From: Dictyostelium discoideum
Lineage: Eukaryota
NCBI GenBank assembly: GCA_000004695.1
Contig: CM000151.3
Coordinates: forward strand, 3,840,001-3,904,000
Reading direction: 5' to 3'
Length of the DNA stretch: 64,000 nucleotides
In this document: piece by piece, positions 2 to 48,186 of the stretch
How the letters are laid out: each line of letters starts with the position of its first letter
Position numbering within the stretch: position 1 is the stretch's first letter
Translations under genes and position numbers: made by a program
The notes under the pieces: model-generated
The model's database searches: none
Told to the model about the DNA's origin: nothing
The model's input: the letters and a program-made list of their open reading frames with translations, nothing else

Positions 2-916
2 GGTAGTCTAAAATATTCATTACGTAGTGTTAGAAAGTACGCCCCTTGGATAAAGAATATTTTTATTGTAACTGCAAATCAAATTCCATCATGGTTTAAT
101 ACTTCAAATCATCAAAATGTTTATTTTATATTTCATAATCAATTTTTTAAAAATATGTAAGTAATTAAATTTAATTTATATATATATATATATATTTTAT
201 CCATAATATATATTAAAATTATTTAATTTTGAATATATAAAAAAAGAGATGATTTGCCAACATTTAATTCAAATTCAATTGAATCAAATTTTTGGAATTT
301 ACCAGAAGAAGTTTCAAATTGTTTTTTATATTTAAATGATGATTTATTTTTTAGAGAACCAGTAAAAGTTAGTGATTTCTTTGATTCTGAATTTAATCAA
401 CATATATTTGAAAGTGATGAAATTATATCAAGTTATACAGATATTGAAAATAATGAAAGATTGGATGTTTGGGCTAAATCATTGGTTATGTCAAATAAAG
501 TATTGGATAGAATTTGGAAAACTCTTGGAAAACCTAGACAAAATGCTCAACATGGTGTTCAAGTGTTTAATAGAAAGATTTGGATCTTAATGAAAAGAGA
601 ATTGGAGAAAGAACTATCAATGACATCTTCAAATAAGTTTAGAACTGTAAATGATATTCAAATACCATTCACCTATAATCAGTTTGCAAAGAGATACTCT
701 CAACATATCATTAAAGAACCAAATAATGGCTACTATGGTTTAAATGATAAAAATTTAAACAAAACTTTTCAAGAAGTTTTACTCAATAAAAATAAATCAA
801 AAACAATTTGTTTAAATGATTTATTGGGTGAAAGTTTAGATAAAAATACAAGTCTTCAAATTTTTAACTTTTTTGAATCTTTATTTCCAATTAAATCACC
901 TTATGAAAATAATTAA
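2..916 (+). CDS. Stealth-family protein resembling the catalytic region of GlcNAc-1-phosphotransferase (GNPTAB-like); 5' end cut by the window; exons about 2..156 and 247..916
   Basis: Frame 2 of bases 2-156 translates to [52 protein letters not shown]. This closely matches the Stealth CR2 block of human GNPTAB ([46 protein letters not shown]). A GTAAGT donor lies at 157 and an AG acceptor at 245-246, giving a 90-nt A/T intron that keeps frame. Exon 2 continues [15 protein letters not shown]...[10 protein letters not shown] (human: LPTFSSPAIESH...FIYLNDDVMF). Stop at 914-916. Confidence 0.7.
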
Positions 917-1236
917 TTTACTAGTAAATATTGTACTAATTTAGTAAAAATAAATTCTTTTTTTTTTTATTTTCCAAATTTGGGAAAAATGGAAAATAAA
1001 TTAAAAATAAAAATGAAATTAAATAAAAAATATGCTCAATTCTTTTTTTAGTTTTTTTTTTTTTTTTTTCATTTTCAATTTTTTTTTTTTTTTTTTTTTT
1101 TCATTTTTTTTTTTTTTTTTTTTCATTTTTTTTTTTAATTATCACAACTTTTTGTAAATTTAACTCTTTTTTTTTTTTTTTTTTGAAAAAAAAAAATAAA
1201 TAAAAAATAATTATTATTATTTATTAATTTTTAAAA

Positions 1237-1376
1237 ATGGAGAATATATGGGGTAAACCCAATACTTCAAATAACAATAATAGTACCGCCAATACAGGTT
1301 CTATTTTTGGAGTGGGTACTACCAACCCTGTATTTGGAACTCCTACATTTGATAACTCAAATACAACAACACCATC

Positions 1377-1413
<37 letters not shown>

Positions 1414-1784
1414 GACAATCTTGGTAGTAATACAATTAGTTTTGGAAATAGTTCACCATTTTCAATAACTTCGACATTAAATCCAAATGCATCATCATTC
1501 ACTCCATCATTTAATAATGTTGGTAACAATTTAAACAATAATAATACCACCACTACTACTACTAATAATAATAATCAAAATATTAATAATAAAATTCAAG
1601 GAAATAATAAAACCAATATTTTATTTGTTAGTAATGTACCAGCATCAAATATTGCTAATGATATAGTATTAATCAATGAAATGAAAAGACATTTTGGGCA
1701 ATATGGTACAGTTTTATCGGTTGATAACATTAAAAAGAAACCGAATAATACTTTTAATTTATCTTTAACATATTCCAATAGTGT

Positions 1785-1853
<69 letters not shown>

Positions 1854-3427
1854 TTACAGAGAGGGTCAAAAAATACTAACAAGTTGTTTTTAATATTAAT
1901 TATTTATTTTTATAGAGTGAAGCATCAGAAGCATTAAAGAAAGGAAAGAAATATCAACATACAATACTTATAATTAAACCACATAAAACTTTTCCAACTT
2001 CAACTACATCATCATCAATGCCATCTTTTAGTACTACTTCACAAATATCAAATACTAATAATAGTAATAATAATAATAATAATAGTAATAATAATAACTT
2101 TAACAACAATAACAACAAAAATGATAGTAGTGATATTTCTTTAATTTTAAAGAAAGATGATGAGTTAATGTTAAGATCACATGAAAGAAATTTAAGATTT
2201 CAATTAATGAAAAATGCGCCACAACAACAACCACAACAACAACCACAAGTACAACCACAAAAACAAAAACAACAATCAACACTTTTAAAGAATGAAGAAG
2301 ATAATTTAGATGATGAAGATGAAATTGAAGAAGATGATATTAATGATGATGATGAAGAAGAGGATGAAGAAGATGAGGATGAAGATGATAATATTAATCA
2401 ATCACCACCACTTAAGGCTACACAATCAAATACAAATCCTACATTAGCCCAACAAGTACCAACAACAACAACAACAACAACAACAACATTAGCATTAAAA
2501 AATAATAATGGACATAAAATTGGATTATGTTTAGATTTTATACCATCAAAAGAGAAACAACATAGAACATCATCAGGTGATATTAATATATTAGAGAAAA
2601 CCCCAACCACTGGTGAGTTAATCCTATTGAAAAAGTATAAGAGAAATGTAGCAGATGATAATACAGAGATTCCACCCGATGAAATTAGACCAGTACATGT
2701 GTTATTAAAGGTAATGAATTATATCACTCATGAGATCTCTGATCAAGAATCACTTCAAAGACCTGGTGTAACATTTTCAGAGATTCAAAATTTCATTCGT
2801 GATAGAACTAGATCCATTAGACAAGATTTAACATCTCAACATTCAAAAGATGGTATTTCAATCGATATCCATGAGAGATGTACTCGTTTTCACATTGTTT
2901 CACATCATTATCTTTGTGAACTACCCGATAAGGATTTCAATGCATTTCAAAATCGTGAACAGTTGAATAATTGTTTAACCTCTTTAAAACAATTCTACAA
3001 TGATCATTTCAAACAATCCAATGGTCTAGTGACAACCAACGAACCAGAATTCCGATCCTATTACATTTTAAATAATTTAGAGAATAACTATGATTTGGTA
3101 TCCTATATGATCGATATACCTCGTTCAATCTTTCATCATCCATTCATTCAATATGCAATCGAAGTTTGGAAAGCTTATCGTTCCGACAACTATAGTAGAT
3201 TCTTTATGTTAACTCTATCGGGTACTTATTTACAAATGTGTATACTTCATCGTTATTTCACTCATGTTAGAAAGATTGCAATCAAAAGAATCGCTAGATC
3301 CTATAGAGCTCCGAAACAACCAACTACTCTTTTCCCAATTCAAGATTTTAATAATATCTTAATGTTTTCTGATTCAAATGAAACTAATCATTTCATTTCT
3401 ACAATCAATGGTATTACAATTGATTCA

Positions 3428-3458
<31 letters not shown>

Positions 3459-6400
3459 GTGGTGGTGGTGGAGGTGATCAAATTATTTTCAATCATTCTT
3501 TTAATTTTAATCAAATTAATGATATTTCAATCACTCCTTATCGTTCTTCCATTGTAATGTCACGTGCACCTAAAACTTTTCAACAAACTATTGATGTACC
3601 AGAACCTGTACCAATCGTTCAATATCGAAAATGTTTCATTGATTTTGATCAATCTTTTCAAAATCCTTTAATATATAATAAACAAAATCTAGATGCTGAA
3701 TCTGAACAATCTGAATATAACTATTCAATAGCTGCTTCTGGTCCAATGAGAAGTTTAGTAACTAAAAATGCAATTGCTACTTTTGGTTTAAGTAATAAAA
3801 TAACTCCAGTCCTACCTTCAACAATAACAACAGCAACGACAACAACATCACCACCACCAATAACAACATCAACCATACCAATTAAATTACCAACTATTTC
3901 ACCAACTTTTGTTAAACAAATACCTCAAACTTCACCAAAAATAAATAATACCAACAATATCAGTACGATTGGGTCTCCATCTATTTTTAATAAACAACAA
4001 CAACAACAACAAACACCACTACCAACAACAGCAGCAGCAACAACAAAAGAAATGACAATAAGTCAAAGTCCAACCATAACATCACCATCTACTCCTTCTA
4101 CCTCTTCATTATTTAATAATAAAACAGGTTTTGGAATTAACAACGTAGTTAATTCAAAATCGATATTTCAAACTCAATTAGCACCAACAACAACAATAAC
4201 AACAACAACAACATCAATACCAACCATACCAACTCCTTCTACATTAAAAACAACAACCATTGAAAACAAATCATCGATAACATGTGTTTTTCCAACCTCT
4301 TTTCCTGATAAGAGTATCTTTGGTGCAACTTCTAATAATAAACAAACACTTCCAACTTCTTCTTCTTCTTCAGTCTTTGCAACCACAACACCACCTTCAT
4401 CTATATTCTCCAATACTCCTTCTTCTTCTTCTCAACAAAAATCATTCAACACTAACATTATCTCACCATCTCAATCAACACCACCATTGGGTGGCAATGA
4501 TTCACTTAAAATCACTACACCTCCAAATAAAACCATTGAAACCACGCCCAATATAACACAATCATCAAATTTATTAAATAGTGGTAGCAGTAATTTATCC
4601 TCAAATTCATTATTTTCACCAACTATTTCTAATACAACACCAAAAACACCAACAATCTTTAATAATGAAAGTAATAATAACAATAACAAAAAAAACATCT
4701 TTGGTGATACAAAAATAGTCACACCAAAACATTCATCATTACCACAAGATTTATTTGGTTCACCAATTGTAAAAGAGATACCATCAACACCAATGAGCAT
4801 TTTACCAGGTAGTAAAAGTACATCTCTTATAGACTCTTCAACAATAACAACAACTGAAAGGGATAAAAAAAGAAGAAATAGAAATGATCAACAAGAAGAT
4901 AATGTCAACTTAAATACACCAATACCAATATCAACTGTTAAACCACAATTCACTGATTTCCCATCATCTCCAATGAATTTATCAACACCATATGTTAATA
5001 AACAATCTAATTTCAGTCTTAATCAACATCAACAGCAACAGAAACAACAACAACAACAAATTCCCTTCCCTTCAAATCTAATTGAGCTCGAAAAATCTAC
5101 ATCCAAAGTTCAATCACTACCACAACAACCACAAATACTACAAACAAAACCACCTCAATCATCAATGCCTATTGTTAAAAAACAAACAAAATCCTATTCA
5201 GAGAAATCGAATAAAACATTACTTTCCTATATGTTTAGATGTTGGAGATTTCAATTATTACGTTTTAAAAATCAACAAAAACAAATTCAAGAAATTGGTG
5301 ATGAAATTCCACTAGATTTAGATAATGAAAATACTTTAGACCCTATTATATTATCACAATCTTTAATAACACCTAAAAAACTATCACCATCAATTCAGCC
5401 TCAATCAATTTCAAAACAACAACAACTACAACCACAATTACAACAACAACAACAACAACAACAACCACTACTACTACAACAACAACCAATTAAAATTGAT
5501 TTATCACCAATAAATATTCCATTTTATATATACGATAATCTAGATAAAATTAATAGACAAAATCAAAAAGGCAAACCCCTATTTTGGAAACTTTTATATT
5601 GTTGTCCAGATCCTCAATTTAATAATAATAATATTAATGATAGTGAAAATAACATTAAACAAATTATTGAAATTATTTCAAATAAATTATCATACGAGAG
5701 AAATAAATTACAACAACAACAACAAAACTATATTACAACATTATGTCAAATTCAAAAATATCATATAGAATACAAAGATCAAAATTCACAAATGAAAAGT
5801 AAAACTGCTGATAGGTCAATAGGTATTTGCGTAAATAGAGTTTTCAATACCAATACTAATAATAGTAATAATAATAATAATAATATGGAATTACAACATA
5901 TTCAAATGACTAGAGGTCTCTCTTCGATATTATTTCAAATATCAACAAGTATTGGATTCGATTCTAATTGTAAATTACAATTGTCTAGAATTTTAAATTC
6001 AATTCAAATTGAAGATCCTATTCAACGTATACCAATATTATTTTTAATTATAAATGATAATGGGGATAATAATAATAATAATAATAATGATAAAATTGAA
6101 AGATCAATTGAAGAATATATTATCAATAATCAAAGAATTTGGGGTGAAATTATAAATCAAATTAAAGTAATCAAAGTAGATAGAATTGATTCAATAGTCT
6201 ATAATAGTTTTAATGGTGATTCTGATAATATATTGGTTAAATCTTTACAATGGTTAAGTAGTAATACCCCTCCAATTCCATTCACAGAGATAAGACCTTT
6301 ATCCTCGGTATTTGATTCAGTAATTGTCAATAAATTTTCAAGTAGTATCTTTAGCCATTATTCAAAACAATTCCAAAATCCAATAATATATAATCAGCAG

Positions 6401-7770
6401 CAGCAGCAGCAACAACAACAACAACTCCCAACACCACAAACTATTGTTAGTTATTTCAATTTTGTAATTAATCAATTGATTTCTTTTATAACAAATCCTG
6501 CTTTGAAATCTATTCAATGGCCAATACCAGAATTTAGTGGAAGTTTTAATACTTCTTATTGGAATAGTGATCAAGTGTTCAACTCTATAAAAATATCACT
6601 AAATTCAATTCTCTTAAATAATTTACCAAATGAATTAAAAGATTTAGTTGGTGCAATATCTAAAATTGCTGATGACACAACAAATAATTTAACATCATCA
6701 TCACAACAAAATCAAACACTCTATCAAGCAATTGAACCAATAATTAAACAATGCAATAATTGGATATCATCTCATCAAAAAGATAAAATCGAATCAATTA
6801 ATATTGATAACCAAGTTAGAGAAATTTTTAATGATCAATTTATTGAAAAATTTGGTAATTTTCATTTACATTTTTTCTTTTTTTTTTTTTTTTTTTTTTC
6901 TTCTCCTAAAATTTATTACTAACATTTAATTTATATATATATATAGAGAAATTCAATAAAATTAATAATGGATATTTTATAGTAATACCATGGCATTTAA
7001 TATTTGAAACAATATTTTCTTATCAAATTAGTAAGATTCCATTCATTCAGTCATTTTATAGCGATTCAATGATTAATGACCTTTTAGATTTTAATAGTTT
7101 TATTGGAAATTATAATAATAATAATAACTACAATATTAATAGCCAATATCAAAATCAAAAGATTATATCATTACCAATAAAGAGTCTTAATAATAGTATT
7201 TTAATTTCACCATCAAAGAAAAGACAGACCAATTTTAATAATAATTTATCCTCTCCTTCAAAGTATCATAGAGTTCATTTTGATGAAATGAAAATTAATG
7301 ATCTTGATACTATTACCACCACCTCCACCGCCACTACCTCATCCAACCCAATGAAAAGAAAACAAAATATTATAAATAATAATGTAGGCATCAACAATAA
7401 TCAAATGTCGGCATCATTATCATCAACTCGTAATAATAATAATATACTAAATAGCCAAATCCAATTAAGTAAAAGTTTAAATTCCAAAAATCAAAGTACC
7501 TCTAGAACTTTGGATCAATTATTGTTAAGTTTACAAAATGAAAAGAAAAAGACAAAAGCTATAAATAGATCTCTTATTTCCACTATAAATACCTACAACA
7601 ACAGAGATAATAATAGTAATTTTAATTATGATGATCAATTAATTAACTCAACTTCAAACTCTAAAGATATGATTTCAAGTACAATTACATTTAAAAACCA
7701 TAAATTGACTGGTAGTGTTTTGGATGTATCCGAAAAACTATTGTTTTTGATAAACAATAGTAATAATTAA
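1237..7770 (+). CDS. SAC3/GANP-family protein (FG-repeat N-terminus, RRM, SAC3/GANP domain); likely TREX-2/MCM3AP homolog; exons about 1237..1782, 1916..6854, 6983..7770
   Basis: Exon 1 encodes FG-like repeats (SIFGVGTTNPVFGTPTF) and the first half of an RRM (ILFVSNVPASNIANDIVLINEMKRHFGQYGTVLSV). A GTAATT donor at 1783 and an AG acceptor at 1914-1915 join in phase 0 to SEASEALKKGKKYQHTILIIKPHK, the RRM end, and this is in frame with the 1634-aa ORF 2018..6922. That ORF carries the SAC3/GANP signature ...DRTRSIRQDLTSQHSKDGISIDIHERCTRFHIV. Its apparent end ([19 protein letters not shown]) is a poly-T translation. A GTAATT donor at 6855 plus an AG acceptor at 6981-6982 (or 6945-6946) splices in frame into ORF 7069..7770, and the frame has no stop between 6949 and 7069. 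The last intron is inferred. Confidence 0.72.
1787..1854. repeat. (ATTT)n microsatellite, about 16 units, inside intron 1 of the SAC3/GANP gene
   Basis: Direct reading: tatttatttatttattt... spanning 1787-1854. Confidence 0.9.
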
Positions 7771-7964
7771 ATAAAGAATTTTATTATCAGCAATATAAAT
7801 CGTTTGTTGTTTTTTTGGATTTTTTGACTTGTTTTTTTTTTTTGGATTTTTTGGTTGTGGGTTGACATTGAATCTTTTCTTTTTAACCTTCTAAAACTGT
7901 ATTATCATTAATATTTGATTTTTAAAAAATTAATAAAGTTATTGATTCTAAAATTTGAATTTAA

Positions 7965-7979
7965 AAGATTTTTTTTTTT
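7965..7979. repeat. Putative target-site duplication, copy at the 3' (poly-A) end of the retrotransposon
   Basis: AAAAGATTTTTTTTT immediately precedes the element poly(A)/poly-T tail. An identical 15-mer sits at 13293-13307 at the 5' junction. The sequence is A/T-rich low-complexity, so a chance match cannot be fully excluded. Confidence 0.45.
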
Positions 7980-8102
7980 TTTTTTTTTTTTTGATATAAA
8001 TAAACTATTGTAGTATACAATTAGTATGTTATTTTTATTTATTTATTTTAGGTTTTTTAGTTTTTGTGAATTTAAAATAGTATGTTATTTTAGATTAGGT
8101 AA

Positions 8103-11100
8103 TTAATAATTAATTGGTGGTGTAATTGTTGGAATTGGTTCATTTGTGTTTATGCTCCATTCTTTTTTAAATTTTTTGATGGTTTCGGACCATTGGGTTT
8201 CTTTTTGAGTTTTTGTGAGGTTGTTTTTAATTGAGTATTGGTTAAAGTTTGATAAAGTTCTTGAATATTCCAATCTTATTAGCTTGTGCCATTTTGATTT
8301 TAATATATCATAATCTAGTGTTGTGTTGTTTATTTGGTTGTTCCAATTATCAATTGATTGAGTTATATTGATGTCAAATAATGATTTGCATAACCATATC
8401 CATATTTGGTGAATAACTAATGAGATTATGTTCCAATATGCATGTGTTCTGACTAGATCAAGATTTGTGTTTATATAATTCCAGTTGAACCTGTATTTTT
8501 TATATTGTGCGTTTTCTGCAAAATGAAAATTAATATTGATAGTTGGATCTGGTTTAAATGCTTTGTTGTTTGTTTGTGGTTTATAGATGAGTGTGTATAA
8601 TTTTGTTGTTTGGTTTTTTGTTAGTGACCAGTTTTTGTTTCCATTGCAATTTTTATATATAAAATATTTTAATTTGTCGTGGTTAATGAAGTTGATTGTG
8701 CGCTGACAATTGAAAAACAAATGCCCATAGGGATCATTATTCATTTCATTGTTGCAAATGGGGCAAACTTTGTTGTGTAGATGATTAATCGGAAGACATC
8801 TAGCATGGAATCTTTGCATTGTATCACGGCCTTTTGGATCTTTTAATTTTTGAATTTTGACAAAAAGTTGGTCGTATGTGTATTTCCATAATAGTTGTAT
8901 TGATTGTTGGTGCGAAGTAAGAAGTAGATCTGAATATTTCTTGCCAATATAGTCTTTTGATTTGCATTGGTGATTGTTTAGTATTGTCGAGTAGATTTCT
9001 TTGAGTGTTGGTGGTAGTGAAATATTATTTGTGTTTAATGTTTGAGAGGGTTGGTTTTTTGTTAATATTGGTTGTAGGATTTGAACTTTATCTTTTAGAT
9101 GTCCAATTTGAGTTGCATAGTTTTCCCATTCTTTTTTGATTTTTATAAGGTATGGAGAAGAGATTGATTTGTTGATGATTTGATCCATCCAACTTATCAT
9201 GTATATTGAATTGTTTGCAGATTTATGCATTTGTAAAAATCTGTTGTATATCCAAATCTTTTGAGCAACTTGTCGTAATTGTATATTCCACATACCCCAA
9301 CCACCTTCTTTTAATGGTTTTAATGATCTATCATAACACATCAAAGGTATTTTTGCACGTGAATGGATGGTTGATGTGTTGTTTTCAATGGAATTGGTAT
9401 TGAGAGTTGGTGATTCAGAATTTGCGGGAGAATTCATAAACCATGAGATTAATTTATTAATTTGAATTTCTTCATCTTTTGTAAATTCTTCAAGGTATGA
9501 TAAATATGTTATTGGTGATAGTGAGTAGGTGTTTATGATGGTTGTTTTTGTTTTTAATGTTGTGCCACTAGTTTTCCATAGCACTAATGATTTAATCAGT
9601 GTTTTCATTGTTTCTGGTAATTTCCTATGTAAACCATTATGATTAAAGAAATAGCCAAGAACTCTTTCTGATTGATCTTTTTTGGTTATTGGTATTCTTT
9701 TTGATTGTGGAATGTTGTTTATTATGTGTTTATCAGTGATTTTGTGGGGGTTGATTTCTATTATTGCACTTTTGTCAAAATTTAATGATGATGATGTTGA
9801 AGCGCAGAAATTATCGAAATGTTTGATTGATTGTTGTTGTTGTTCGTAGTTGATGTTGTATGTTGTAGAGTCGTCTGCAAATTGGGTAAATTTGATTTTA
9901 ATTTGTGGATTGGGTGAAATTGGTAATCCAATTATTGAATTGTCTGCATTTATTGTTCTTGCTAATATTTCAATTACAATTACAAATAAAGTGGCTGAGA
10001 TTGGGTCACCTTGTTTTACACCTCTTTTAATATCGAATTTTCTGGTCGTTTTACCATTAATTGAAATTTTTGCTTGTGAGTCAGATAATAGCTTGTGGAT
10101 TAAATTTATTAATTTTATTGGTATACCAATATGAATTAATGTTCTTTTAATGCTATCGTGAGAGATAGAATCAAATGCTTTAAAGAAGTCAAATAGTGTG
10201 ATGATACCAGGGAGGTTTTTAGATTTGAGGTAGTTGATTAATTCATTGATGTTGATGATGTTGTCTATGATGAATCTGTGGGGTACGAAACCAGTTTGGT
10301 TGTTGTTGATGATGAAAGGAAGTATTCTCAGAAGACGTGCATTGATTACTTTTGAGAGGATCTTGTAATCAGTGTTTAGAAGTGTAATGGGACGACGATT
10401 TGATATGAGTAAGGGGTTGCCTTTCTTGTATATTGTGTGTATAAGACCTTCTGTGAATTCTGTTGTGATGTGGTGAGGATTTTCTAGTATATCGTTGAAT
10501 AATGTAGTGAGAATTGGTTTAACTTGGTTTAAATGATTAATGTAGAATGCATTTGTAACGCCATCTGGACCGGGTGATTTGTTGGGGTTACAGGTTTTAA
10601 TTGCAGCTTCAACTTCATCTTGTATAAATGGTGAGTCTAAACCATTCCAATATTCATTTTTTATGATGGGCCATGTGTTTAGCATGAGCTGGTGAGTAAT
10701 TGGACAACATATTTGTAAGCTATATAGATTTGTGTAGAATTCAACAAACGCATTTTCAATTTGGTCGGGGTCGGATGTAATGATGTTACCATATTGGATT
10801 GATTCAATTTTTGCATCTTTTGATCTTTTGTTTAGTATTGCTGATAGATACTTGCTAGGTATTTCTCCATTTATATGTTTTTTTAATATGTTTGTGTGGT
10901 TTTGATGTAATTTGTTTTTGTTACATATAATATTGTATTCAGCGATGCATTGTTCTTCAAGATGTTTGAATTTTGCTGCTTTTTCTAATAGTATTTGTTT
11001 TGCACGTTGAGTTTGTTTGTCTTTGTTATATTGATAGTTTTTTAGAGTTTTAATAATTTTTGATTTTACTTTTGACCAGTTTGTAAATTGATTGATTGAT

Positions 11101-11459
11101 GTGTTATTGTGATTAGTTATTAAATGATTGATAATATTGATTGCTTCATGGTCATTTGCAGTACCAGGTGATAATATCCATCTTTTCTTATGTTTATTTA
11201 TTTGAAAAGGTGAAGAAATTGTTGTTGATATTGGATTATGATCTGATAATGAAGATGGAATTTGGTGGACTTGTGTATATATATTTTCAGGGTCTATTCT
11301 ATTGTATTGAGTATATATTCTATCTAATCTGTTGCCATGTGTATGAGTTGGAGTGTTTTTAAATTCACCTTGATCAATTAGATGGTGTTGGTATGTGTAG
11401 GATTGGATAATATCATCTAATAGTGAATTGTCGTTGTGGATACGATTTTTTCTTGCCAA
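8103..11459 (-). CDS. Retrotransposon ORF2 remainder: endonuclease C-terminus, reverse transcriptase, C-terminal zinc-knuckle domain (1118 aa ORF)
   Basis: The N-terminus carries the end of the APE domain (LIDQGEFKNTP = GDFN motif; RLDRIY; SDHNPI = SDH motif). The RT block reads ...ITLFDFFKAFDSISHDSI...GVKQGDPISATLF...FTQFADDSTTY. The CCHC-like knuckle is near the C-terminus. Confidence 0.8.
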   Translation of the reverse strand: MARKNRIHNDNSLLDDIIQSYTYQHHLIDQGEFKNTPTHTHGNRLDRIYTQYNRIDPENIYTQVHQIPSSLSDHNPISTTISSPFQINKHKKRWILSPGTANDHEAINIINHLITNHNNTSINQFTNWSKVKSKIIKTLKNYQYNKDKQTQRAKQILLEKAAKFKHLEEQCIAEYNIICNKNKLHQNHTNILKKHINGEIPSKYLSAILNKRSKDAKIESIQYGNIITSDPDQIENAFVEFYTNLYSLQICCPITHQLMLNTWPIIKNEYWNGLDSPFIQDEVEAAIKTCNPNKSPGPDGVTNAFYINHLNQVKPILTTLFNDILENPHHITTEFTEGLIHTIYKKGNPLLISNRRPITLLNTDYKILSKVINARLLRILPFIINNNQTGFVPHRFIIDNIININELINYLKSKNLPGIITLFDFFKAFDSISHDSIKRTLIHIGIPIKLINLIHKLLSDSQAKISINGKTTRKFDIKRGVKQGDPISATLFVIVIEILARTINADNSIIGLPISPNPQIKIKFTQFADDSTTYNINYEQQQQSIKHFDNFCASTSSSLNFDKSAIIEINPHKITDKHIINNIPQSKRIPITKKDQSERVLGYFFNHNGLHRKLPETMKTLIKSLVLWKTSGTTLKTKTTIINTYSLSPITYLSYLEEFTKDEEIQINKLISWFMNSPANSESPTLNTNSIENNTSTIHSRAKIPLMCYDRSLKPLKEGGWGMWNIQLRQVAQKIWIYNRFLQMHKSANNSIYMISWMDQIINKSISSPYLIKIKKEWENYATQIGHLKDKVQILQPILTKNQPSQTLNTNNISLPPTLKEIYSTILNNHQCKSKDYIGKKYSDLLLTSHQQSIQLLWKYTYDQLFVKIQKLKDPKGRDTMQRFHARCLPINHLHNKVCPICNNEMNNDPYGHLFFNCQRTINFINHDKLKYFIYKNCNGNKNWSLTKNQTTKLYTLIYKPQTNNKAFKPDPTININFHFAENAQYKKYRFNWNYINTNLDLVRTHAYWNIISLVIHQIWIWLCKSLFDINITQSIDNWNNQINNTTLDYDILKSKWHKLIRLEYSRTLSNFNQYSIKNNLTKTQKETQWSETIKKFKKEWSINTNEPIPTITPPINY
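8937..9022. repeat. Copy A of an 85-bp internal direct duplication within the retrotransposon (2 mismatches against copy B)
   Basis: tttcttgccaatatagtcttttgatttgcattggtgattgtttagtattgtcgagtagatttctttgagtgttggtggtagtgaa recurs at 11447..11533. Both copies translate to ...SLPPTLKEIYS... on the minus strand. Confidence 0.8.
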
Positions 11460-11533
11460 TATATTCTTTTGATTTGCATTGGTGATTGTTTAGTATTGCG
11501 AGTAGATTTCTTTGAGTGTTGGTGGTAGTGAAG
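11447..11533. repeat. Copy B of the 85-bp internal duplication; it sits between the two halves of the APE domain and breaks the ORF2 reading frame
   Basis: Same sequence as 8937..9022 with one substitution and a 1-nt deletion. ORF 11490..11930 stops inside it, and ORF 8103..11459 restarts just downstream. Confidence 0.8.
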
Positions 11534-11930
11534 TTGCATATGAATTCTTTTTGATGGTATTATTTGATGCTGGTGCGTAAATTCCAAGAATACCAATTGG
11601 TAATTGATTTGGAAATATAACGTCTGCTAAAATAGCTCTACCATCAATTGTTGATATGTGTTTGAGTTTGAGTGTGTTTGGGTTATGGTTAATGATGATT
11701 ACACCATTTCCTCGTTTGGTGACAGAGATGATGTGATCGGGAAAATCATGTTTAAGTTGTAATGGTGATGAATTGAGTTCAGTGAGTATTGAGATTGTTG
11801 GACGAGGTGGAAGTTTTGATATAAGTAGTTGTAGTGTGTCAACAGCTTTTTGGTAGGAATTGTGTTGATTGTTTGGGTTTTCAGTGAATCCTCTACAATT
11901 CCATGTTATAAAGTTGATTTTTGAGCTCAT
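11490..11930 (-). CDS. Retrotransposon ORF2, N-terminal part of the APE-like endonuclease domain, terminated early by an internal duplication
   Basis: Starts MSSKINFITWNCRGF (the LINE APE N-terminal motif) and runs to ...GILGIYAPAS (vYaP motif). It then reads into a duplicated 85-bp segment (...SLPPTLKEIYSQY*) and stops. Confidence 0.7.
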   Translation of the reverse strand: MSSKINFITWNCRGFTENPNNQHNSYQKAVDTLQLLISKLPPRPTISILTELNSSPLQLKHDFPDHIISVTKRGNGVIIINHNPNTLKLKHISTIDGRAILADVIFPNQLPIGILGIYAPASNNTIKKNSYATSLPPTLKEIYSQY

Positions 11931-13135
11931 ACCTTACTAGGTTTGGCAGCACCAGTATTGACTGGTTGTGTAGTCAGGGCATTGCTGCTTCTTCTTGTAT
12001 TTATTGGATTTGGAGTTGGTGCACTTGGTTTGTTTGGTTGAGATTGTAGAGGTTTTTGTGGTACAATTGTTGGATCGGTTGGATTGCTCATTGATAATGA
12101 GTTTTTCCCGTTATTATTATTTGAAGAATCACTTTTGTGTGAAATTTCATTATTGTTTTGGGATTGATTGTTAATATCAAGTGATTCATTTAGTATAGCT
12201 TTTGAACCACTATTTTGAAGTGAGTTTTTATTGCGATTGGAATTTGCAATTTCGTTGATTGGTGGGGTGTTAATGTTGTTTTTTGGTGGTTGATTGTTTT
12301 TGTTCATGTTTGGGTTTGTGATGGCATTTTTTATAGTTGTTGCCATATCTGCATTTTTTGCATGTTGAATTTTGTGTTTAGTGACACTACGTGTTGCAGC
12401 TTTGATATATCTTGTGATACCAGATGGTTGTTCGATCTTTTGATCAACAATGTTGTGTGTGTGATCAATTAGATGATATGTTATAATGTAGCTTTTAAAC
12501 GCAACAGCATATGAGTATGTGACAGTAAATGATTCAATTGATGTACAACTGGTGAATTTAGTGAGGTTGTTTGTAATTGCATCGTTTGCATGTTTGGGTG
12601 AGTACGTTTTAATGAATGTTTTAATGATTGCATAATCATTTGATGATATATCGAATCTATAGTTGAGTTTGTCGATATTTAGTGCAAGTTGGTTTTGAAG
12701 GTTGATTATTGAAGTTAATTTATCAACGTTGCAATTTACGAAGGCAGTTGCACCAATTATTTTGAATGCTGATGGCGACAGTATATCTTCGAAGAGTTTG
12801 TGAATGTTTTTGTGAATTTGTTGAATTCTTGTGTCATCTTTTGAGGTTAATTCTTCACGGATGTGTGGTTGATTAAAGTAACACTTAATGTTGATGGTGT
12901 TATTGTTTTTTTCTAAGAAAGAGAGTGGTCTTGTGATTGATGGAGGTGCAATGATATCTAATTGATTATCAAGTCCTTTGTTTAGTGAGAGTTGGTTTGT
13001 TGGGGTTTGTTTTTTAGGTGTGTCGATTTTTGCACTTTTGTTTTTTGTTGTTGAGGTTGTGGAGGTATTATTTGTATTGGTTGTGTTGTTATCTGTATGA
13101 TTTAACTGTAATTCAGTTGAGTGATCATCAGCCAT
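11927..13135 (-). CDS. Retrotransposon ORF1 protein (402 aa)
   Basis: Intact ORF directly upstream of and overlapping (ATGA) the endonuclease ORF. The N-terminus is S/T/N-rich. No recognisable enzymatic motif, as is typical of LINE ORF1. Confidence 0.65.
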   Translation of the reverse strand: MADDHSTELQLNHTDNNTTNTNNTSTTSTTKNKSAKIDTPKKQTPTNQLSLNKGLDNQLDIIAPPSITRPLSFLEKNNNTINIKCYFNQPHIREELTSKDDTRIQQIHKNIHKLFEDILSPSAFKIIGATAFVNCNVDKLTSIINLQNQLALNIDKLNYRFDISSNDYAIIKTFIKTYSPKHANDAITNNLTKFTSCTSIESFTVTYSYAVAFKSYIITYHLIDHTHNIVDQKIEQPSGITRYIKAATRSVTKHKIQHAKNADMATTIKNAITNPNMNKNNQPPKNNINTPPINEIANSNRNKNSLQNSGSKAILNESLDINNQSQNNNEISHKSDSSNNNNGKNSLSMSNPTDPTIVPQKPLQSQPNKPSAPTPNPINTRRSSNALTTQPVNTGAAKPSKV

Positions 13136-13292
13136 TGTTGAAAAGTATATAGGACGATAGCCCTTGCTTTAATGAGCAAAAATAGGGTAAAATTAAGAGG
13201 AATGAATGTGGCGGTGAAGATATAACAGTGATTTATTTATTATATGTATAAATTCTCGTTTATTTCTTTGTTTTTTCGGTTTTTTGTTTTTC

Positions 13293-13307
13293 AAAAGATT
13301 TTTTTTT
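13293..13307. repeat. Putative target-site duplication, copy at the 5' end of the retrotransposon
   Basis: Identical 15-mer AAAAGATTTTTTTTT (plus strand) matching 7965-7979. Confidence 0.45.
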
Positions 13308-13320
13308 AAATTCTATACAA

Positions 13321-13331
13321 AGAATCGAACC
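13321..13331 (-). promoter_or_regulatory. External B box (ex-B) about 30 bp downstream of tRNA-Gln
   Basis: Minus strand reads GGTTCGATTCT, a perfect B-box consensus GGTTCGANTCC outside the tRNA. Extra downstream B boxes are a known feature of many Dictyostelium tRNA genes. Confidence 0.6.
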
Positions 13332-13353
13332 TACGATCTAATATTTCCGATTT

Positions 13354-13358
13354 AAAAA
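13354..13358 (-). terminator. Pol III oligo-T terminator of tRNA-Gln
   Basis: TTTTT on the minus strand immediately 3' of the tRNA. Confidence 0.55.
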
Positions 13359-13359
13359 T

Positions 13360-13431
13360 GGTTCTACTGAGACTCGAACTCAGATTACAGGATTCAAAGT
13401 CCTGGGTGCTAACCAATTACACTATAAAACC
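13360..13431 (-). tRNA. tRNA-Gln (anticodon UUG)
   Basis: Minus-strand sequence GGTTTTATAGTGTAATTGGTTAGCACCCAGGACTTTGAATCCTGTAATCTGAGTTCGAGTCTCAGTAGAACC folds as a cloverleaf. The acceptor stem is 7 bp with two G-U pairs. The anticodon stem CAGGA/TCCTG holds loop CTTTGAA with anticodon TTG. The T arm is CTGAG-TTCGAGT-CTCAG with an internal B box. It is followed by discriminator A and a TTTTT run. Confidence 0.85.
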
Positions 13432-13863
13432 TTGATGTTTTTATAATTTTATATAGTAACTATTATGCTTAAAAAAAATTTTGATGTTTAAATTTATTAT
13501 TTTAAATCTGGATAAATGAAAGAAAGTTGATCAAGTTACACTTAAGCCTAAAAAAGAGGTAGGGCTACAATAAAAAATTCAAAAAAAATTGAATTAGAAT
13601 AGATAATAAACTCATTTCAATCTTAGGTATTTAGAATTTAAAGTTATTGGTTTATAAAAACATAATTAAAAAAATCATTTATTCACGATTACCTATGTTT
13701 TGTTTGGTTTTAGTGTTCTCATCATGATTATTGAACTTTATATATATATATATATTACATTTATTCATTAAATGTAACCAAAATATAAATACATATAAAA
13801 AGATTTTAATAAATTAATATTAATCTTTTTTTTTTTTTTTTTTTTTTTATCATATTATATTAT

Positions 13864-14722
13864 TTATTTATTTTCTAATTTTGAAAGGATTTGAATTTGT
13901 TCTAAATCTTCCAAATCTTTTAATAATTTTGCGGCATTGTAACGAAGTTTATGAAAATTATCGATTGAAACTTCAAATACTTTTGATTTACCATTGGTAT
14001 CGTTCATTTCCATTAAAATTACAGGATTGAGCACTCTAGATGTAAAACTACTGCTAATGATTACATCAACTCTCCATTTAAAACTTGATAACTGAGGGAA
14101 TAATATCTTATCATTATTTGATCTTTCTGCTAAATCTTTACTCCTATTTATTGTAAAAAATAAAAAATAAAAATAAATAAAAATAAATAAAAAGTATTAA
14201 TAAAATTGACTGTTATTAATACTCTCTAATTTTATTTATTTAAAACTTTCATGATGGGGGGTTCTCTTTATAAATAAAAATAATAAATAATAATAATAAA
14301 TAATAAACTTACTGAGTGTTATAAATATTTGTTAAATCAGTTATTAAGTTTTGTGGTAATTTAAGATCAGTTATATCAGCGACGAATATTTGATTTGAAA
14401 CTTTCTTCTTTAAGGCAACCTTTAAAATATAATAGAGACCAGTGAAAACGATTGATGATAGATTTGGATCTACTTTATTATCATTTGATGATACTGTTAA
14501 TTTATCATGAATAGATTCTGTTATTTGATTTAATTTATCCTCTTCTTCTTTTTTTACTAAATTAATCATTTTGGTTTTCATATATAGAACCAACAATGAT
14601 AATATATCCTTAATAAATGTTTGTTCAAACTTTTGACAAACTGGTATCATATTCTTTACCTCTGATGGTATATTATAACCTAAATATGAGACTCTTTCTG
14701 TCAATTTCTTTATTATAAACAA
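13864..14722 (-). CDS. COMM-domain (COMMD-like) protein; exons about 14313..14722 and 13864..14143
   Basis: Exon 1 is ORF 14309..14722. It ends ...NIYNTQ followed by a GTAAGT donor (phase 2). An acceptor at 14144-14145 opens a 280-nt exon encoding SKDLAERSNNDKILFPQLSSFKWRVDVIISSSFTSRVLNPVILMEMNDTNGKSKVFEVSIDNFHKLRYNAAKLLKDLEDLEQIQ. This has the W-x-V-D-V...SS pattern of a COMM domain. Total length is about 230 aa. Confidence 0.5.
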
Positions 14723-15207
14723 ATAAATAAAATTAATAAAAAAAAATAAAAAAAATAAAAAAAAAAATAAAAAAAAATAAAAATAAAAAAAAAGATTTTT
14801 TTTTTTTTTTTTTTTTTTTGGTCTTCTGATTGTTCCTCTGAAATTTTTTTATTTTTTATTTTTTTTTTATTGTTTAATTTTTAATATTTTCATTTTTTTA
14901 TTTTTATTTGTAGATATCTTTATTTTTAGAATTTTTTTTTTTTTTTTTAATCCTCCAATAGTTAATCTACAAAAAAAAAAAAAAAAAAAAAGAAAAAAAA
15001 AGAATTAAACTTATAATCTTATAAAAAAAAAAATAAAAAAAAAAAGAGATATCTCTATTTTTTTTAATCAAAAAAATTTAAATAAATTTAGAGATAATAT
15101 TTAATAAATAAGTAATCTTTTGGTATTTTATTAAAAAAAAAAAAAATTTTAATTATTTATTTTCAATCTTTTTTTTTTTTTTTTTATTATTTTTTTTATT
15201 TTTATTA

Positions 15208-16917
15208 TTATAACCAATTATATGACTTTTTATTTCCATATTTTAATATTATTCTTTTAATTCTTGATTTTAAAATATTAATAAAAATTTGATAAAAATA
15301 TTTCAAGATACGAATATTATTATTTAATACATTTTGTTTTATATGTTCAACTTTAATTTCGACAAATATTGGATGTAAACGCATAATTAATTTACATAAA
15401 TATAAATTTGGTTGAAGAAATGCCATTGCAAATATCGAAAATTTAGAAGTTAATAAACTATCAAAAATTAATTGATGGTGATTTCTTAATAAAAATTCTG
15501 CAATATCTTGTGGATTACTATTAAAACTACTACTATTATTACTATTATTACTATTATTACTATTATTACTATTATTATCAAATTCACTTTCATTTTCACT
15601 CTCATTTTCATTTTCATTTTCACTTTCATTATCACTATCAATAATTTTATATTCATCGCAACTAAAAATTGATTTTAATAAATCTTCATTAATTCTTTTT
15701 ACTTTACAAGTTGATAAAATGAATTTCACTAAATCTAATCTTACTCTTTCCAAAGCAAATTCTAATAATAATCTATTTTTTAATAATTTTAAAGAAACTA
15801 TTGATTTAAATAATTCTAAATCATTATTACCATTATTATTATTATCAGTGATATCCATTTTATGATTTAAACTAAAATCATCACCATCAGAAATATTTAA
15901 ATTGAGTAAGAAACCTAAATAATTAATCTTTTTAAGATTAAAACCATCTGAATGAATTTCTTTTAAAAGATTTATAATTGTTGAACTTTCTTTAACATTT
16001 ATTAGATATTGCATATCAAAATAAAATCTAGTTTTAATTTTACTATCTATATCTTGATCAAACATTGAATCCTTTTCTAATGAATCAATATAATTATTAA
16101 TTAATCTTCTTAATTTTAAAAATATCTCTTCAAAATTTAATTTTAATATTAATTTAAGTGTAATTATTTCTTCATTTTTTTGTAATTTTTGTGGTTGTTG
16201 TGATTCTGAATCTTCTGTTATTAAAATTGTATTGTTTTTATTTTTACTATTTGTAGTATTTGTAGTATTTGTAGTATTTGTAGTATTTGTATTTGTTGTA
16301 GTTGTTGTTGAATTTGAAATTTTAGTTGTAGTTGTTGAAGAAAAGAATTTATTATAATTTTCAAGATTACTATATTTAAAATTAAAATTTTTTACTCTTG
16401 ATAAGAAATAATTTGATAATTTCCAAGATTTATGATACAAATAATAAAACATTTTAAAAAAGTTTGGAATTGAATTATAAAAAGACATTGAGATATTATT
16501 TCTTTTAAAGAGTTGATTCAATTTTTCAATATTAATTAATTTAGTTGAACTTTGTAAACCAATGATATATAAATGTTTGAAAAGGTGATTAATTGAATTG
16601 AATGTACTATTTTTAAATTTAATTGATAACATTTGTTTTAATTTAATTAATTCATCAGATACTAAATAAACATCTTGAAATGAGATATCGTCTCTAATGA
16701 ATACTCTATTCTCTATTGGATCTATGATTTTATATAAACTATCATAATATTCTATACTAAATTGATTATCAATATCTCTTTTCAATTGTTGATCATTAAA
16801 TGAATCTTCTGTAATATTTGAAAATTGTAATAATATAACTTTTGAAACTTCAAAATTACATTCTAATATTGAAAATGCTAATAATCTAATTGATGATTCA
16901 TCATAATTTGTATCCAT
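15208..16917 (-). CDS. Hypothetical low-complexity protein (569 aa ORF; N/S/T- and ENESEN-repeat tracts)
   Basis: Long uninterrupted ORF in A/T-rich DNA with Dictyostelium-typical codon usage. No motif recognised. Confidence 0.4.
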   Translation of the reverse strand: MDTNYDESSIRLLAFSILECNFEVSKVILLQFSNITEDSFNDQQLKRDIDNQFSIEYYDSLYKIIDPIENRVFIRDDISFQDVYLVSDELIKLKQMLSIKFKNSTFNSINHLFKHLYIIGLQSSTKLINIEKLNQLFKRNNISMSFYNSIPNFFKMFYYLYHKSWKLSNYFLSRVKNFNFKYSNLENYNKFFSSTTTTKISNSTTTTTNTNTTNTTNTTNTTNSKNKNNTILITEDSESQQPQKLQKNEEIITLKLILKLNFEEIFLKLRRLINNYIDSLEKDSMFDQDIDSKIKTRFYFDMQYLINVKESSTIINLLKEIHSDGFNLKKINYLGFLLNLNISDGDDFSLNHKMDITDNNNNGNNDLELFKSIVSLKLLKNRLLLEFALERVRLDLVKFILSTCKVKRINEDLLKSIFSCDEYKIIDSDNESENENENESENESEFDNNSNNSNNSNNSNNSSSFNSNPQDIAEFLLRNHHQLIFDSLLTSKFSIFAMAFLQPNLYLCKLIMRLHPIFVEIKVEHIKQNVLNNNIRILKYFYQIFINILKSRIKRIILKYGNKKSYNWL

Positions 16918-17019
16918 ATTTTAATATAAATATAAATATAAATATATATATATATATGAAATAATAAAAGAAAAAAAAAAATTATTAAAAAAAAATTTAA
17001 AAATAAAAAAAATTTGGAG

Positions 17020-17059
<40 letters not shown>

Positions 17060-17137
17060 GAAAGAAAAACAAAAAAAATTATATTTTTATAAAAAAAAAA
17101 AAAAAAAATGAAAAAACGATGTTGAAGTTCGAATTTT

Positions 17138-19833
17138 TTATTTATTAAAAACTGTTCCTTTAAAACCAGTTTCATAATTTGATTCTTCAATAAAATCATC
17201 AAAATAATCTTCATTTTCAATAACTTTCAAAACTATAATTTGATTTGGAACTAATTTATACCAATTTAATTGAGCACAAGATTCCTTGAGTTCAATAACA
17301 GAATCTGGATCACCAGGTTTCCTATCTTGTGTGAGAATAAATAATCTTTGTTTAAAAGGTGGTACATCCATTATTGAAAAAATTGTTAATTTAAGTCCTT
17401 CTACTGTATAATCACTATTAATTGGTGAAATTTCATTTCTGAAAACTAAAAAAGATAAATAATTAATAAAACTTCATTTTTAAAATCTAAAAATAATAAT
17501 TAAAAAAATATTAAATAAACATACATCTTGAAGTTCTAAAAGTTGTTGGAAATGAATAATATTTTAAATCTTTTTCATTTTCTTTATCATTAATTCTATG
17601 AATGAATAAAGAAGCATTATTAAAATTTAATTTCTTTTTTAAATGAATTTCTTGTTGAATTAAAAAACATTGTTGACAAAAAGTAAATGGTTCTAATAAT
17701 CTATTATTTTCAAATGAAATATTGATATTATCTTTTGAGCCATACTTTGTAATCAATTTATCATAGATTTCTTTTGGAATCAATAGAAATGGTAAATTAA
17801 TTTCTGAAAGGCGACTAGTTTTATCAGTCAATGAAAAAGTTGATAATTGATTTAAAAATTGTTGATCTGATAAATCATATTGAAATTTAGAATGTTCACA
17901 AAGAAAACCACTATTATCAATAATACCAATAAAAATTTTCAAATCCTTAGTAGTGGTGGTAGTGTTTGAGATTGATTCGTCGATTGAATCACTTTGAAAT
18001 TCACTACCATCTTGATCTTGCTCTTGATCTTGACTTGGGTCAATAACAGTGGATCTCCAATTTATTAACCAATCTTTTGAAATTACATTATATTGACCTA
18101 CTGAAAGATTTGGTTTTTTCTTTTTATTGGTTAAAGATAAAAGTGCAAGTAAACCTTTCATATCTTTTTTCTCTTGTTTTGCCAATTCTAATTTCTCATT
18201 GAGTTTATAATCCAACTCTCTACAAATTAAACATTCTGAATAATCTTTAACTGCAAGAGTTTTAGACATTGGATATAAAGAATAAAGATATTCCCATGTT
18301 TCTCTTGTAATTGGTAATCTATCTTTTTCTTCAAGATTGAAACCATCATGAGGACAAATTAAATCATTTGTTGGAGTTATTGATAGACGTTTTTCAATAT
18401 TTGATATCTTCCATCTCTTGAACCACTCATATGATATATAATATTCCTTTAAATTTGATTTAGTGGTGGTTGTGGTTGTGGCTGCTGCTGTTGTTGTTGA
18501 AGAATTTTTTGATTTTGGTATTACTTTTTCAAGGGAAATACAATAATCTTTTAAATTTTTATTTGTTGCCAATTCTTCTGTTTGAAAGAAAATTGAATAG
18601 AGACATTCAGTACAAACACTTGAACTATCAAAAGCTGGTCCACCACCACCTACTGAATTATAAATCATTTCCCAAGCTATTGGTGAAATTCTTTTCATTG
18701 ATTCCAATTTATTTGGGTCTACACTACCATGAGAACATTGAATATTTGAATTATCAATTGGGAAATTTAAACCTTGAATCCAACCTTTTAACCAATTAAC
18801 ATCAATCCAATAATATTTATTTTTACTTTCAAATTCTAATAATGATTTTTCTTTAACTCTCTTTAATAATTCATCTTCATCATCATCATTATAATGATCA
18901 TCTTCGTCTTCGTCTTTGTATTCTTCTTCTTCTTCTTCATTTATATTTGCTTGTAATAATGGTTCAATCTCTTTAAAAAGTTCAATTCTTTTTGTCCATT
19001 CAAATTTAAGTTTTTCAAACTGAGAACCAAAAGAATCTTTTTGTTGACTAAATGAGTTCTCAATCTCTTCTAATCTATCTAATAATCTATTTGATAAATT
19101 ATTAAAAGATCTCAAAGGATTCGAGATATCCTCTGAATGAGTGATTCTATTCATTTTAGAATAAACTACCATATAAGCTGTTGATGATGATATAGTTCCA
19201 TTTTCAATCTCTTTCTTTTTTCTTTTCTCTTTATTATTGTTTTTACCTAAACTCTTAATATCTATCTCCTCTACAGTTTCATCATTAAATGTAAACCATC
19301 TACCAGTTATATCATCTTTAATTTGACAAATATAATGACCCCCACTAGTACCAACACCTTGATGCATTAAAATTCCAGTTAATTCATATTCAAAATCTCC
19401 TTCATTTTCAAATTGAATTGAATTTGAGTCTAAATTTGAAATTGTAATTGATTTTGAAATTTTATTAAAATTATTTTGATTATCATTTGTTTTTGTTACT
19501 GTTGTATTATTTGTATTTGTGTTTGATGTATTAGTAGATGTATTAGTTGAGGTTGTTGTTGTTGTAGTAGTAGTTGTTGTTTGTGGTATTGTTTTAAAAT
19601 TTACAATTTCACTAAAAAAACTCCTATACTTTTTTAAAAATTGATCGGATGAAAGTAATTGATCTAATTCTACACTTGTTAAAGTTTTACTATTTACAAT
19701 TTTTTGGACAACTCTATAAAAGTTTACTTGATTATATAATAATTGATTTTCTTCATCCTCCTCAAATAAAGAATCCTTTATACAATAAAATAAATCTTTA
19801 CAATCATTATCACTATTATTATTTTTATTATTA

Positions 19834-19913
<80 letters not shown>

Positions 19914-21389: not shown

Positions 21390-21451
21390 AACTGTTTTTT
21401 TTATCCTTTTTTTTTTATTTTTTATTTTTTTTATTTTTTTTATTTTTTTTG

Positions 21452-21458
<7 letters not shown>

Positions 21459-21534
<76 letters not shown>
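21459..21534. repeat. (ATT)n microsatellite, about 25 units, in the 5' flank of the USP48-like gene
   Basis: Direct reading. Confidence 0.9.
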
Positions 21535-22025
21535 TTATATTATATAATAAATAAATAAATAAATAAATAAAAAAAGTGTAAAAAAAAATAAATAAAAAAA
21601 ATTAAAAAAAAATAAGAGAAGAGATATTATTTTGGAAAAAAAAAATTAAATAAAATAAAAATAAAAAAAAAAATAATTAAAAAAAATAAAAAAAATTAAA
21701 AAAAATTAAAAAAAAAAAAATTTCAATTTTTTTTTTTTTTTTTTTTTTTCCACCAGTCCACACAAACAATTATTATTATAATTTAATTTAAAATTTATAT
21801 AGAAATACTAAGGTTATTATATACATATTTTTAGATAAAAATAAAATTTTTTTAATAAAAAAAAATAAAATTAAAAATTAAAATAAAAAAAAAAAAAAAA
21901 AAAAAAAAAGAAAAAGAAAAAAAAAATTGGGATTATTATTTAAAAAAAACAACAACACAACCGACAAAAACAAAAACAAAAACAAAAACAACAGAAACAA
22001 AAACAACAATTGTTTATATATATAA

Positions 22026-41368: not shown

Positions 41369-46140
<4,772 letters not shown>

Positions 46141-47022: not shown

Positions 47023-48186
<1,164 letters not shown>

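Follow-up and report, generated by a model that had tools for sequence, protein, structure and literature searches.

We analysed a window of 64,000 nucleotides (nt) from the genome of Dictyostelium discoideum (GenBank assembly GCA_000004695.1, contig CM000151.3, positions 3,840,001 to 3,904,000 of the forward strand; unless stated otherwise, positions below are those of the window). On its minus strand the window contains a TRE3-A-type retrotransposon in which 81 nt of the APE endonuclease region of the second open reading frame (ORF2) are replaced, in exact register, by a copy of a segment from the C-terminal region of the same reading frame. At the orthologous locus of an independent long-read assembly, the element is present at the same insertion site, carries no such patch and has a plain deletion of 2511 bp with one end at the upstream patch junction. 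Comparing these sequences, we consider it probable, at roughly 70%, that the full-length element with its patch is an assembly chimera laid over a 2511-bp deletion allele. The features on which this reading depends are as follows.

7969-13292, minus strand: TRE3-A-type element as represented in the window (5' end near 13292/13285)
11490-11930, minus strand: N-terminal open reading frame (ORF) of ORF2, 146 amino acids (aa), covering the first half of the APE domain and continuing into the patch (from the ORF list)
8103-11489, minus strand: remainder of ORF2 in the same frame, with the C-terminal part of the APE domain, the reverse transcriptase (RT) and the C-terminal region (RVT_1, E = 1.5e-30)
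11444-11524, minus strand: patch of 81 nt, displacing equally many nt that encode aa 136-162 of the canonical APE domain, the GDFN motif among them (ungapped alignment)
8932-9013, minus strand: source segment in the ORF2 C-terminal region, encoding ...PPTLKEIYSTILNNHQCKSKDYIGKK..., aa 973 onward (alignment)
11525-11532, minus strand: TTCACTAC microhomology at the upstream patch junction, identical with the deletion junction at the orthologous locus (alignment)
9014-9021, minus strand: second TTCACTAC octamer, in the source region; its distance from the APE octamer is 2511 nt (837 codons) (read from the sequence)
About 11455-11435, minus strand: downstream patch junction, ...GGCAAGAAAAAATC followed by GTATCCACAACGAC... 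(sequence)
9022-11532, minus strand: 2511 bp present in the window and absent from the orthologous locus (alignment)

In-register replacement in the endonuclease region

The initial annotation of the window had reported that some 85 nt from the ORF2 C-terminal region reappear within the endonuclease domain with two differences, and two comparisons bear this out. A repeat search of the window paired 8924-8986 with 11436-11498 at 90% identity and 8988-9021 with 11499-11532 at 100%. A BLAST comparison of the element with the window returned the same repeat as a 98-nt match (8924-9021 with 11436-11532; 92.9% identity, E = 6.6e-35), the sole internal repeat of the element that is not of low complexity. 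Across the core of the repeat (8937-9021 versus 11447-11532) there are exactly two differences: one base has been lost between 11498 and 11499, and 11464 carries a substitution relative to 8952. The segment inside the APE domain is thus a copy of the ORF2 C-terminal region, from aa 971 onward.

As had also been described, the APE N-terminal ORF (11930-11490) runs into the copy and ends with ...SLPPTLKEIYSQY and a stop codon, and the next listed ORF begins 30 nt further on, at 11459. ORF2 is indeed interrupted, but the supposed break of the reading frame is not a frameshift: both pieces share one frame (11930-11459 = 471 = 3 x 157), and the interruption is an in-frame TAA at 11490-11492. This stop results from the 1-nt deletion inside the copied segment, and the frame downstream is unaffected because 81 is a multiple of three.

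The annotation had further proposed that the copy was inserted between two intact halves of the endonuclease, so that excising 85 bp would restore a contiguous enzyme. Intact copies of the element do not agree with this proposal. Intact relatives read ...NSYATSL, then QTLLHNHSTNPIPNQSQHVSIIAGDFNC, then IHNDNS..., and the window reads ...NSYATSL, then PPTLKEIYSQY, a stop and TITNANQKNILARKNR, then IHNDNS..., a change confined at the protein level to aa 136-163 that leaves the total length the same. Aligned without gaps to the DNA of a full-length copy (L001), the element of the window matches perfectly on either side of the patch, from TTCACTAC (11532-11525) on one flank and from GTATCCAC (11443 onward) on the other. 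The intact ORF2 (1275 aa in proteins P0001 and P0096) and the conceptual ORF2 of the window comprise 1275 codons each. The copy therefore stands where 81 nt of canonical sequence belong: the foreign segment is just as long, 81 nt, and keeps the register exactly.

In the patch itself, 76 nt match the C-terminal source save for the 1-nt deletion (11498/11499) and the one substitution (11464). The final 5 nt (11448-11444, AAATC) match neither template cleanly and form a mosaic of both. Deviations from the template mount toward the 3' end of the patch, with the deletion at patch position 27 followed by T-to-A changes at 61, 77 and 79. The microhomology that had been suggested for the origin of the duplicate is evident at the upstream junction, where the 8-nt TTCACTAC is found at just two sites in the element, the junction and the source; the downstream junction offers 5 ambiguous nt and partial homology (ATC.AC).

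The 27 replaced codons include G159, D160 and N162 of the GDFN motif, which are invariant in an alignment of 10 APE domains. A profile built from these 10 domains matched the human L1 endonuclease structures 2v0s and 1vyb (E = 3e-44) with GDFN aligned to GDFN; a PDB search with one APE sequence gave no match, and the 10-domain profile was needed. Because GDFN lies within the replaced codons, removal of the copy would not restore the enzyme. Against the Pfam profile Exo_endo_phos (PF03372), the N-terminal ORF of the window aligned at positions 1-115 only, with 19.8 bits, under the cut-off of 24.5, whereas the intact relative P0096 aligned over positions 1-225 with 48.5 bits. The window copy accordingly has neither the complete APE domain nor the GDFN motif of a functional L1 EN-like endonuclease. 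The duplicate and the interrupted ORF are real, but the idea of a plain insertion of 85 duplicated bp with a resulting frameshift is refuted by the equal length of intact copies with 81 different nt at this place, by the loss of aa 136-162, GDFN included, that would remain after excision, and by the single shared frame; we give this explanation almost no weight.

We compared the patch region with a family set of 38 proteins from two D. discoideum annotations, containing 26 occurrences of the APE N-terminal half. In 24 of the 26, the APE N-half runs on into the canonical segment, and the downstream junction of the patch was found in none of them. All eight other DNA copies that cover the region likewise carry the canonical segment. 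The patch is peculiar to this copy, as the initial annotation had supposed, and is not a feature of the family. The circumstance that the annotation itself had named as fatal to its view, a segment present in all family members with ORF2 normally expressed as two ORFs, does not obtain: the canonical APE N-halves and DNA copies, together with the uninterrupted 1275-aa ORF2s (P0001, P0096), refute it, and its probability is negligible. In one protein of the set, P0010, the C-terminal region follows immediately on the APE N-half. Exact look-ups of the 146-aa APE N-terminal ORF, of ORF1 of the window, and of the 438-aa fusion ORF and ORF1 at the locus that encodes P0010 returned no match, from which, for a multi-copy repeat, nothing follows.

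The orthologous locus and the origin of the patch

P0010 is encoded on a sequence (L002) of assembly GCA_054883475.1. Judging by the fit of assembly statistics, GCA_054883475.1 is presumably the assembly of strain AX2-214, which was built from Nanopore and Illumina reads with an N50 of 5.3 Mb and an L50 of 3 (PMC12745789). Positions 1-9688 of L002 correspond to 21147-11449 of the window at 99.7% identity, and positions 9604-18522 to 9021-94 at 99.8%; the two matches overlap by 85 nt, which is a single copy of the repeat. The insertion is the same, the flanks are the same (~15.7 kb, near-identical), and nothing of 9022-11532 is present. Since the flanks differ at very few places outside homopolymer lengths, the two sequences come from very closely related strains.

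In the L002 element, the APE N-half is fused to the C-terminal region at the same TTCACTAC. The result is a clean, in-frame deletion of 2511 bp (837 codons) that leaves an intact fusion ORF of 438 aa; the patch structure is not there. The duplicate had been proposed as a molecular tag for a lineage, but the sole related structure that we found is this plain deletion at the same locus; it lends that proposal no support and hints that the patch arose in assembly. At the variable site within the repeat (11464 versus 8952), canonical copies and the window source carry C, L002 carries T and the patch carries A. L002 has three further private variants within 80 nt downstream (8915, 8914 and 8873), none of which occurs in the window. 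The tri-allelic site and the private variants indicate that L002 is not a simple recombinant of the two repeats of the window. If an L002-like molecule gave rise to the patch, its departure from the canonical base at the variable site is expected.

Internal deletion at microhomology is commonplace in LINE-like elements (LINE, long interspersed nuclear element), and L002 conforms to it in its clean deletion between identical 8-nt sequences and in the retention of both ends, the tail and the target-site duplication. It is distinguished by a deletion that happens to be in frame and by a 438-aa fusion product that lacks an RT domain and has only part of the APE domain.

The following course of events would connect the two assemblies. 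The locus would truly hold an internally deleted copy, 2.8 kb long rather than 5.3 kb, in which one microhomology-mediated jump between the two TTCACTAC octamers dropped 2511 bp and thereby fused the APE N-half in frame to the ORF2 C-terminal region. The jump could have occurred during target-primed reverse transcription, in which the RNA is copied from its 3' end: the end of the nascent cDNA, with the C-terminal octamer copied, would re-anneal at the upstream APE octamer and skip 2511 nt. After integration, microhomology-mediated end joining or replication slippage could have given the same product, and the sequence does not discriminate among the three, so that the L002 deletion is not assignable to any one of them. 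Reads from the deleted copy would cross the junction and extend ~80 nt into C-terminal sequence, the APE N-half of the deletion allele continuing into ...GGCAAGAAATATTCAGATCTACTTC...; the consensus would have kept such a read tail column for column and then resumed with full-length copies or with the family consensus.

A consensus built column by column would give replaced and replacing segments of equal length. Changes would pile up at the end of the patch, as in a degrading read tail, which covers the 1-nt deletion, the T-to-A changes and the mosaic junction, and the in-frame stop would follow as a by-product of the 1-nt deletion. The absence of the same 2.5 kb from this locus in an independent long-read assembly is accounted for as well. 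We infer the route by which the consensus was built and that the strain behind the window itself carries the deletion allele; the sequences themselves show that 81 nt are replaced, where the junctions lie, that GDFN is lost, that L002 has a deletion allele at this locus and that none of the other copies has the patch.

The case resembles repeat-induced consensus chimeras in its in-register swap, in the error-like deviations that rise toward the patch end, in its absence from the long-read assembly and in nearby stretches of the window that also resemble low-quality sequence. It differs from them in that the chimera is deduced here from sequence comparison. Two weaker hints point in the same direction. 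Residues 164-968 of the window ORF2 are identical to the GenBank pol protein AAD43057.1, and over aa 601-968 none of 19 genomic copies shares this identity. Moreover, the Dictyostelium genome group is documented to have spanned transposon gaps with transposon consensus sequence in centromeric regions (PMC2665215).

Several observations weigh against a chimeric origin. The documented use of consensus sequence concerns centromeres and not this locus. The middle 2.4 kb of the element has no private differences relative to 11 other copies, but only ~1.7 would be expected. Its older-subfamily alleles agree with those of the 5' and 3' parts, as they would in a genuine single copy. Position 61 of the patch is A and not the T of L002, so that an extra error is needed. 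Finally, two ORF1 variants that appeared private to L002 recur in a copy of strain AX4 (P0106), and cross-contamination between copies at the level of single-nucleotide polymorphisms (SNPs) could therefore lie in L002 and not in the window.

Should the patch instead be genuine, it would have arisen by a double template switch of the RT or by templated repair, and the 85-bp repeats would later have recombined in the other strain, deleting 2511 bp. In the first form, the RT, having reached the APE region, would switch back to C-terminal sequence on the RNA being copied or on a second one, copy ~81 nt and return at TTCACTAC. In the second, resembling polymerase-theta end joining, a break in the APE region would be filled from a template 2.5 kb away. 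The 8-nt microhomology upstream and the partial homology (ATC.AC) downstream fit such an origin, as do the older-subfamily alleles that the middle part shares with both ends, and an 85-bp direct repeat could plausibly give rise to a deletion. Like polymerase-theta templated insertions and double-switch patches, the segment is a short stretch taken in cis from 2.5 kb away, with microhomology at its upstream junction and partial homology at the other. An equal-length swap is not expected of these processes, however: two jumps would have restored the exact length (81 = 81) by coincidence, in a copy whose stop codon offers no selective reason for it, and the other lineage must have undergone an additional deletion. 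Its product would be expected to have A or C at the variable site, yet L002 has T and three private changes nearby, and this deletion allele with its discordant SNPs argues against a genuine patch. The error-like gradient and the clusters of substitutions in the window would also be left without explanation. On balance, we regard a genuine patch as unlikely, and slightly more so in its fully specified form, in which two microhomology-guided switches made the patch and its repeats then caused a sister laboratory lineage to lose 2.5 kb within decades of culture.

An error of the opposite kind, in which the window is right and L002 has collapsed between the 85-bp repeats, appears very improbable. 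Repeats can mislead assemblers, and some L002 variants do occur in other copies. L002 nevertheless belongs to a long-read assembly (PMC12745789) whose reads should cover a 5.3-kb element; its deletion is clean, in frame and located at microhomology, and its junction region has private variants of its own and no mix of the two repeats of the window. Such a collapse would in addition leave the in-register replacement in the window unexplained. We also weighed, and set aside, a full-length donor acting through gene conversion or gap repair: this would restore the canonical sequence or need an exact coincidence of length.

The host element, its relatives and the surrounding sequence

The window has a G+C content of 24%, and its host element can be assigned to TRE3-A, a non-long terminal repeat (non-LTR) retrotransposon of D. 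discoideum formerly called Tdd-3. End to end, the 5307 nt of the element align at 98.6-98.9% to seven full-length copies of GCA_054883475.1. Its conceptual ORF2 has 98% identity with the D. discoideum AX4 protein DDB_G0291958 and shares 1249 of 1275 residues with AAD43057.1. We take the latter to be the TRE3-A protein of Szafranski et al. 1999; the database entry itself reads just "pol". The remaining features of the element and its insertion site are listed below.

11927-13135, minus strand: ORF1, 402 aa (from the ORF list)
7969-7992, minus strand: A24 tail, a T run on the plus strand (read from the sequence)
13293-13307, minus strand: putative target-site duplication, upstream copy, A(n)TCTTTT (read from the sequence)
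13322-13331, minus strand: B-box-like decamer GGTTCGATTC, ~30 bp downstream of the tRNA-Gln gene, shortly before the insertion point
13359-13431, minus strand: target of the insertion, a tRNA-Gln gene (anticodon TTG) that lies upstream and is oriented like the element (ARAGORN)

TRE3 elements integrate 40-150 bp downstream of tRNA genes and share their transcriptional orientation (PMC5911963). The present element conforms to this pattern: both it and the tRNA-Gln gene (13431-13359) lie on the minus strand, and its 5' end (~13292-13285) is 66-73 bp downstream of the gene. External B boxes occur at D. discoideum tRNA genes and are said to be targets of TRE3 (PMC5911963); the decamer GGTTCGATTC is a possible candidate for one. 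An oligo(A) tail and a target-site duplication, both typical of TRE3, are present as A24 and as A(n)TCTTTT at each end, the downstream copy of the duplication (~7963-7969) merging into the A tail.

ORF1 and ORF2 overlap by 4 nt, with the ATG of ORF2 at 11930; (13135-11930) mod 3 = 2 corresponds to the -1 frame relation stated for TRE3-A (PMC5911963). The domain order of ORF2 is APE, RT and a cysteine motif, as in TRE3, with the APE domain incomplete in the window copy. In the intact relative P0096, the Pfam domains span aa 8-231 (Exo_endo_phos) and aa 502-732 (RVT_1). In the window, the CCHC-like motif (CPIC...NC) starts at aa 1056, about 8765-8700. The site downstream of a tRNA gene, the shared orientation, the two ORFs in -1 relation, the order of domains, the A tail and the target-site duplication are thus those of TRE3 elements as described (PMC5911963, PMC5006619). 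The copy departs from them in its 27 overwritten APE codons, in the in-frame stop of ORF2 and in the absence of 2511 bp from the copy at the orthologous locus.

Other copies of the family provided several further observations. A table of haplotype sharing singled out no clear donor among them for the middle part of the window element. Six full-length TRE3-A copies of GCA_054883475.1 (L006-L011) are nearly identical and share diagnostic alleles, for example at positions equivalent to 13082, 13040, 12448, 12098, 11052, 10910, 9894 and 9381 of the window, alleles that the window copy does not have. By sequence, these six copies represent a recently amplified subfamily. An identical gene-model product of 1596 aa (P0098) comes from four loci. 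TRE3-A copies often lie head to tail, ~35-70 bp apart, as though one copy drew the next insertion; examples are 2851-8157 and 8229-11033 of L001, 1-2492 and 2526-7622 of L003, and 451-5757 and 5806-6233 of L009.

Gene models of the ACTFIT_ series, including P0002, P0010 and P0098, fuse ORF1 to ORF2 through a predicted intron (...EISHK joined to RFTENPNN...) and not through the -1 overlap, and the model P0090 (DDB_G0268608) spans two adjacent copies. Such intron-fused and two-copy models are annotation artefacts, and they are relevant to any count of "intact" ORF2s.

Within the element, 8701 and 8724 (G and G in minus-strand sense) are private to the window, being absent from L002 and from 10 other copies covering these positions. 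One of the two changes H1077 to R beside the cysteine motif. They sit where the window again agrees with L002, as at the end of another read tail.

Two stretches outside the element also stand out in the comparison with L002. At 15281-15285, three G-to-T changes within 5 nt turn GS into FI near the C-terminus of a 569-aa ORF (15208-16917, minus strand). Both L002 and the ortholog from the outgroup D. citrinum (P0085) have GS at the equivalent position, so that the FI of the window is derived or erroneous. This ortholog was the one match that a homology search with the 569-aa ORF gave, low-complexity words having filled the list of candidates. At 14568-14704, nine substitutions fall within 137 nt, one of which turns the ATG that starts a COMM-domain gene (L002 gene 6432-7272) into TTG. 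The remaining flanks are nearly free of substitutions relative to L002, and these two clusters look like the product of locally poor consensus quality in the window.

Elsewhere, four stretches of the window (~21400-21550, 43760-43960, 47720-47845 and 19800-19960) contain mutually similar low-complexity repeats with 85-96% identity to 1176-1357 of L002. These are probably coding simple-sequence tracts of the kind typical of Dictyostelium genes.

Implications for the reference sequence and for TRE3-A

Overall, these comparisons suggest that the genome most probably contains no such patch. If the element in the window is a chimera, the assembly misstates the locus, presenting a 5.3-kb element with a unique patch in place of a 2.8-kb deleted copy. 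Users of the sequence would then be misled in transposon phylogeny, in the mapping of small-RNA and RNA-seq reads, and in counts of intact versus defective ORF2s. The two adjoining clusters of apparent base errors, in one of which the COMM-domain gene loses its start codon, also merit the notice of assembly curators.

The value of the finding would lie mainly in the curation of the reference, and its biological weight is small. TRE3-A is a well-described family in which defective and internally deleted copies are ordinary. The underlying event, a single jump between two TTCACTAC octamers, would be a tidy case of microhomology-mediated deletion in a LINE-like element and no new type of event. 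Were the patch genuine after all, the locus would instead document a dated, two-step pathway by which a LINE-like element decays.

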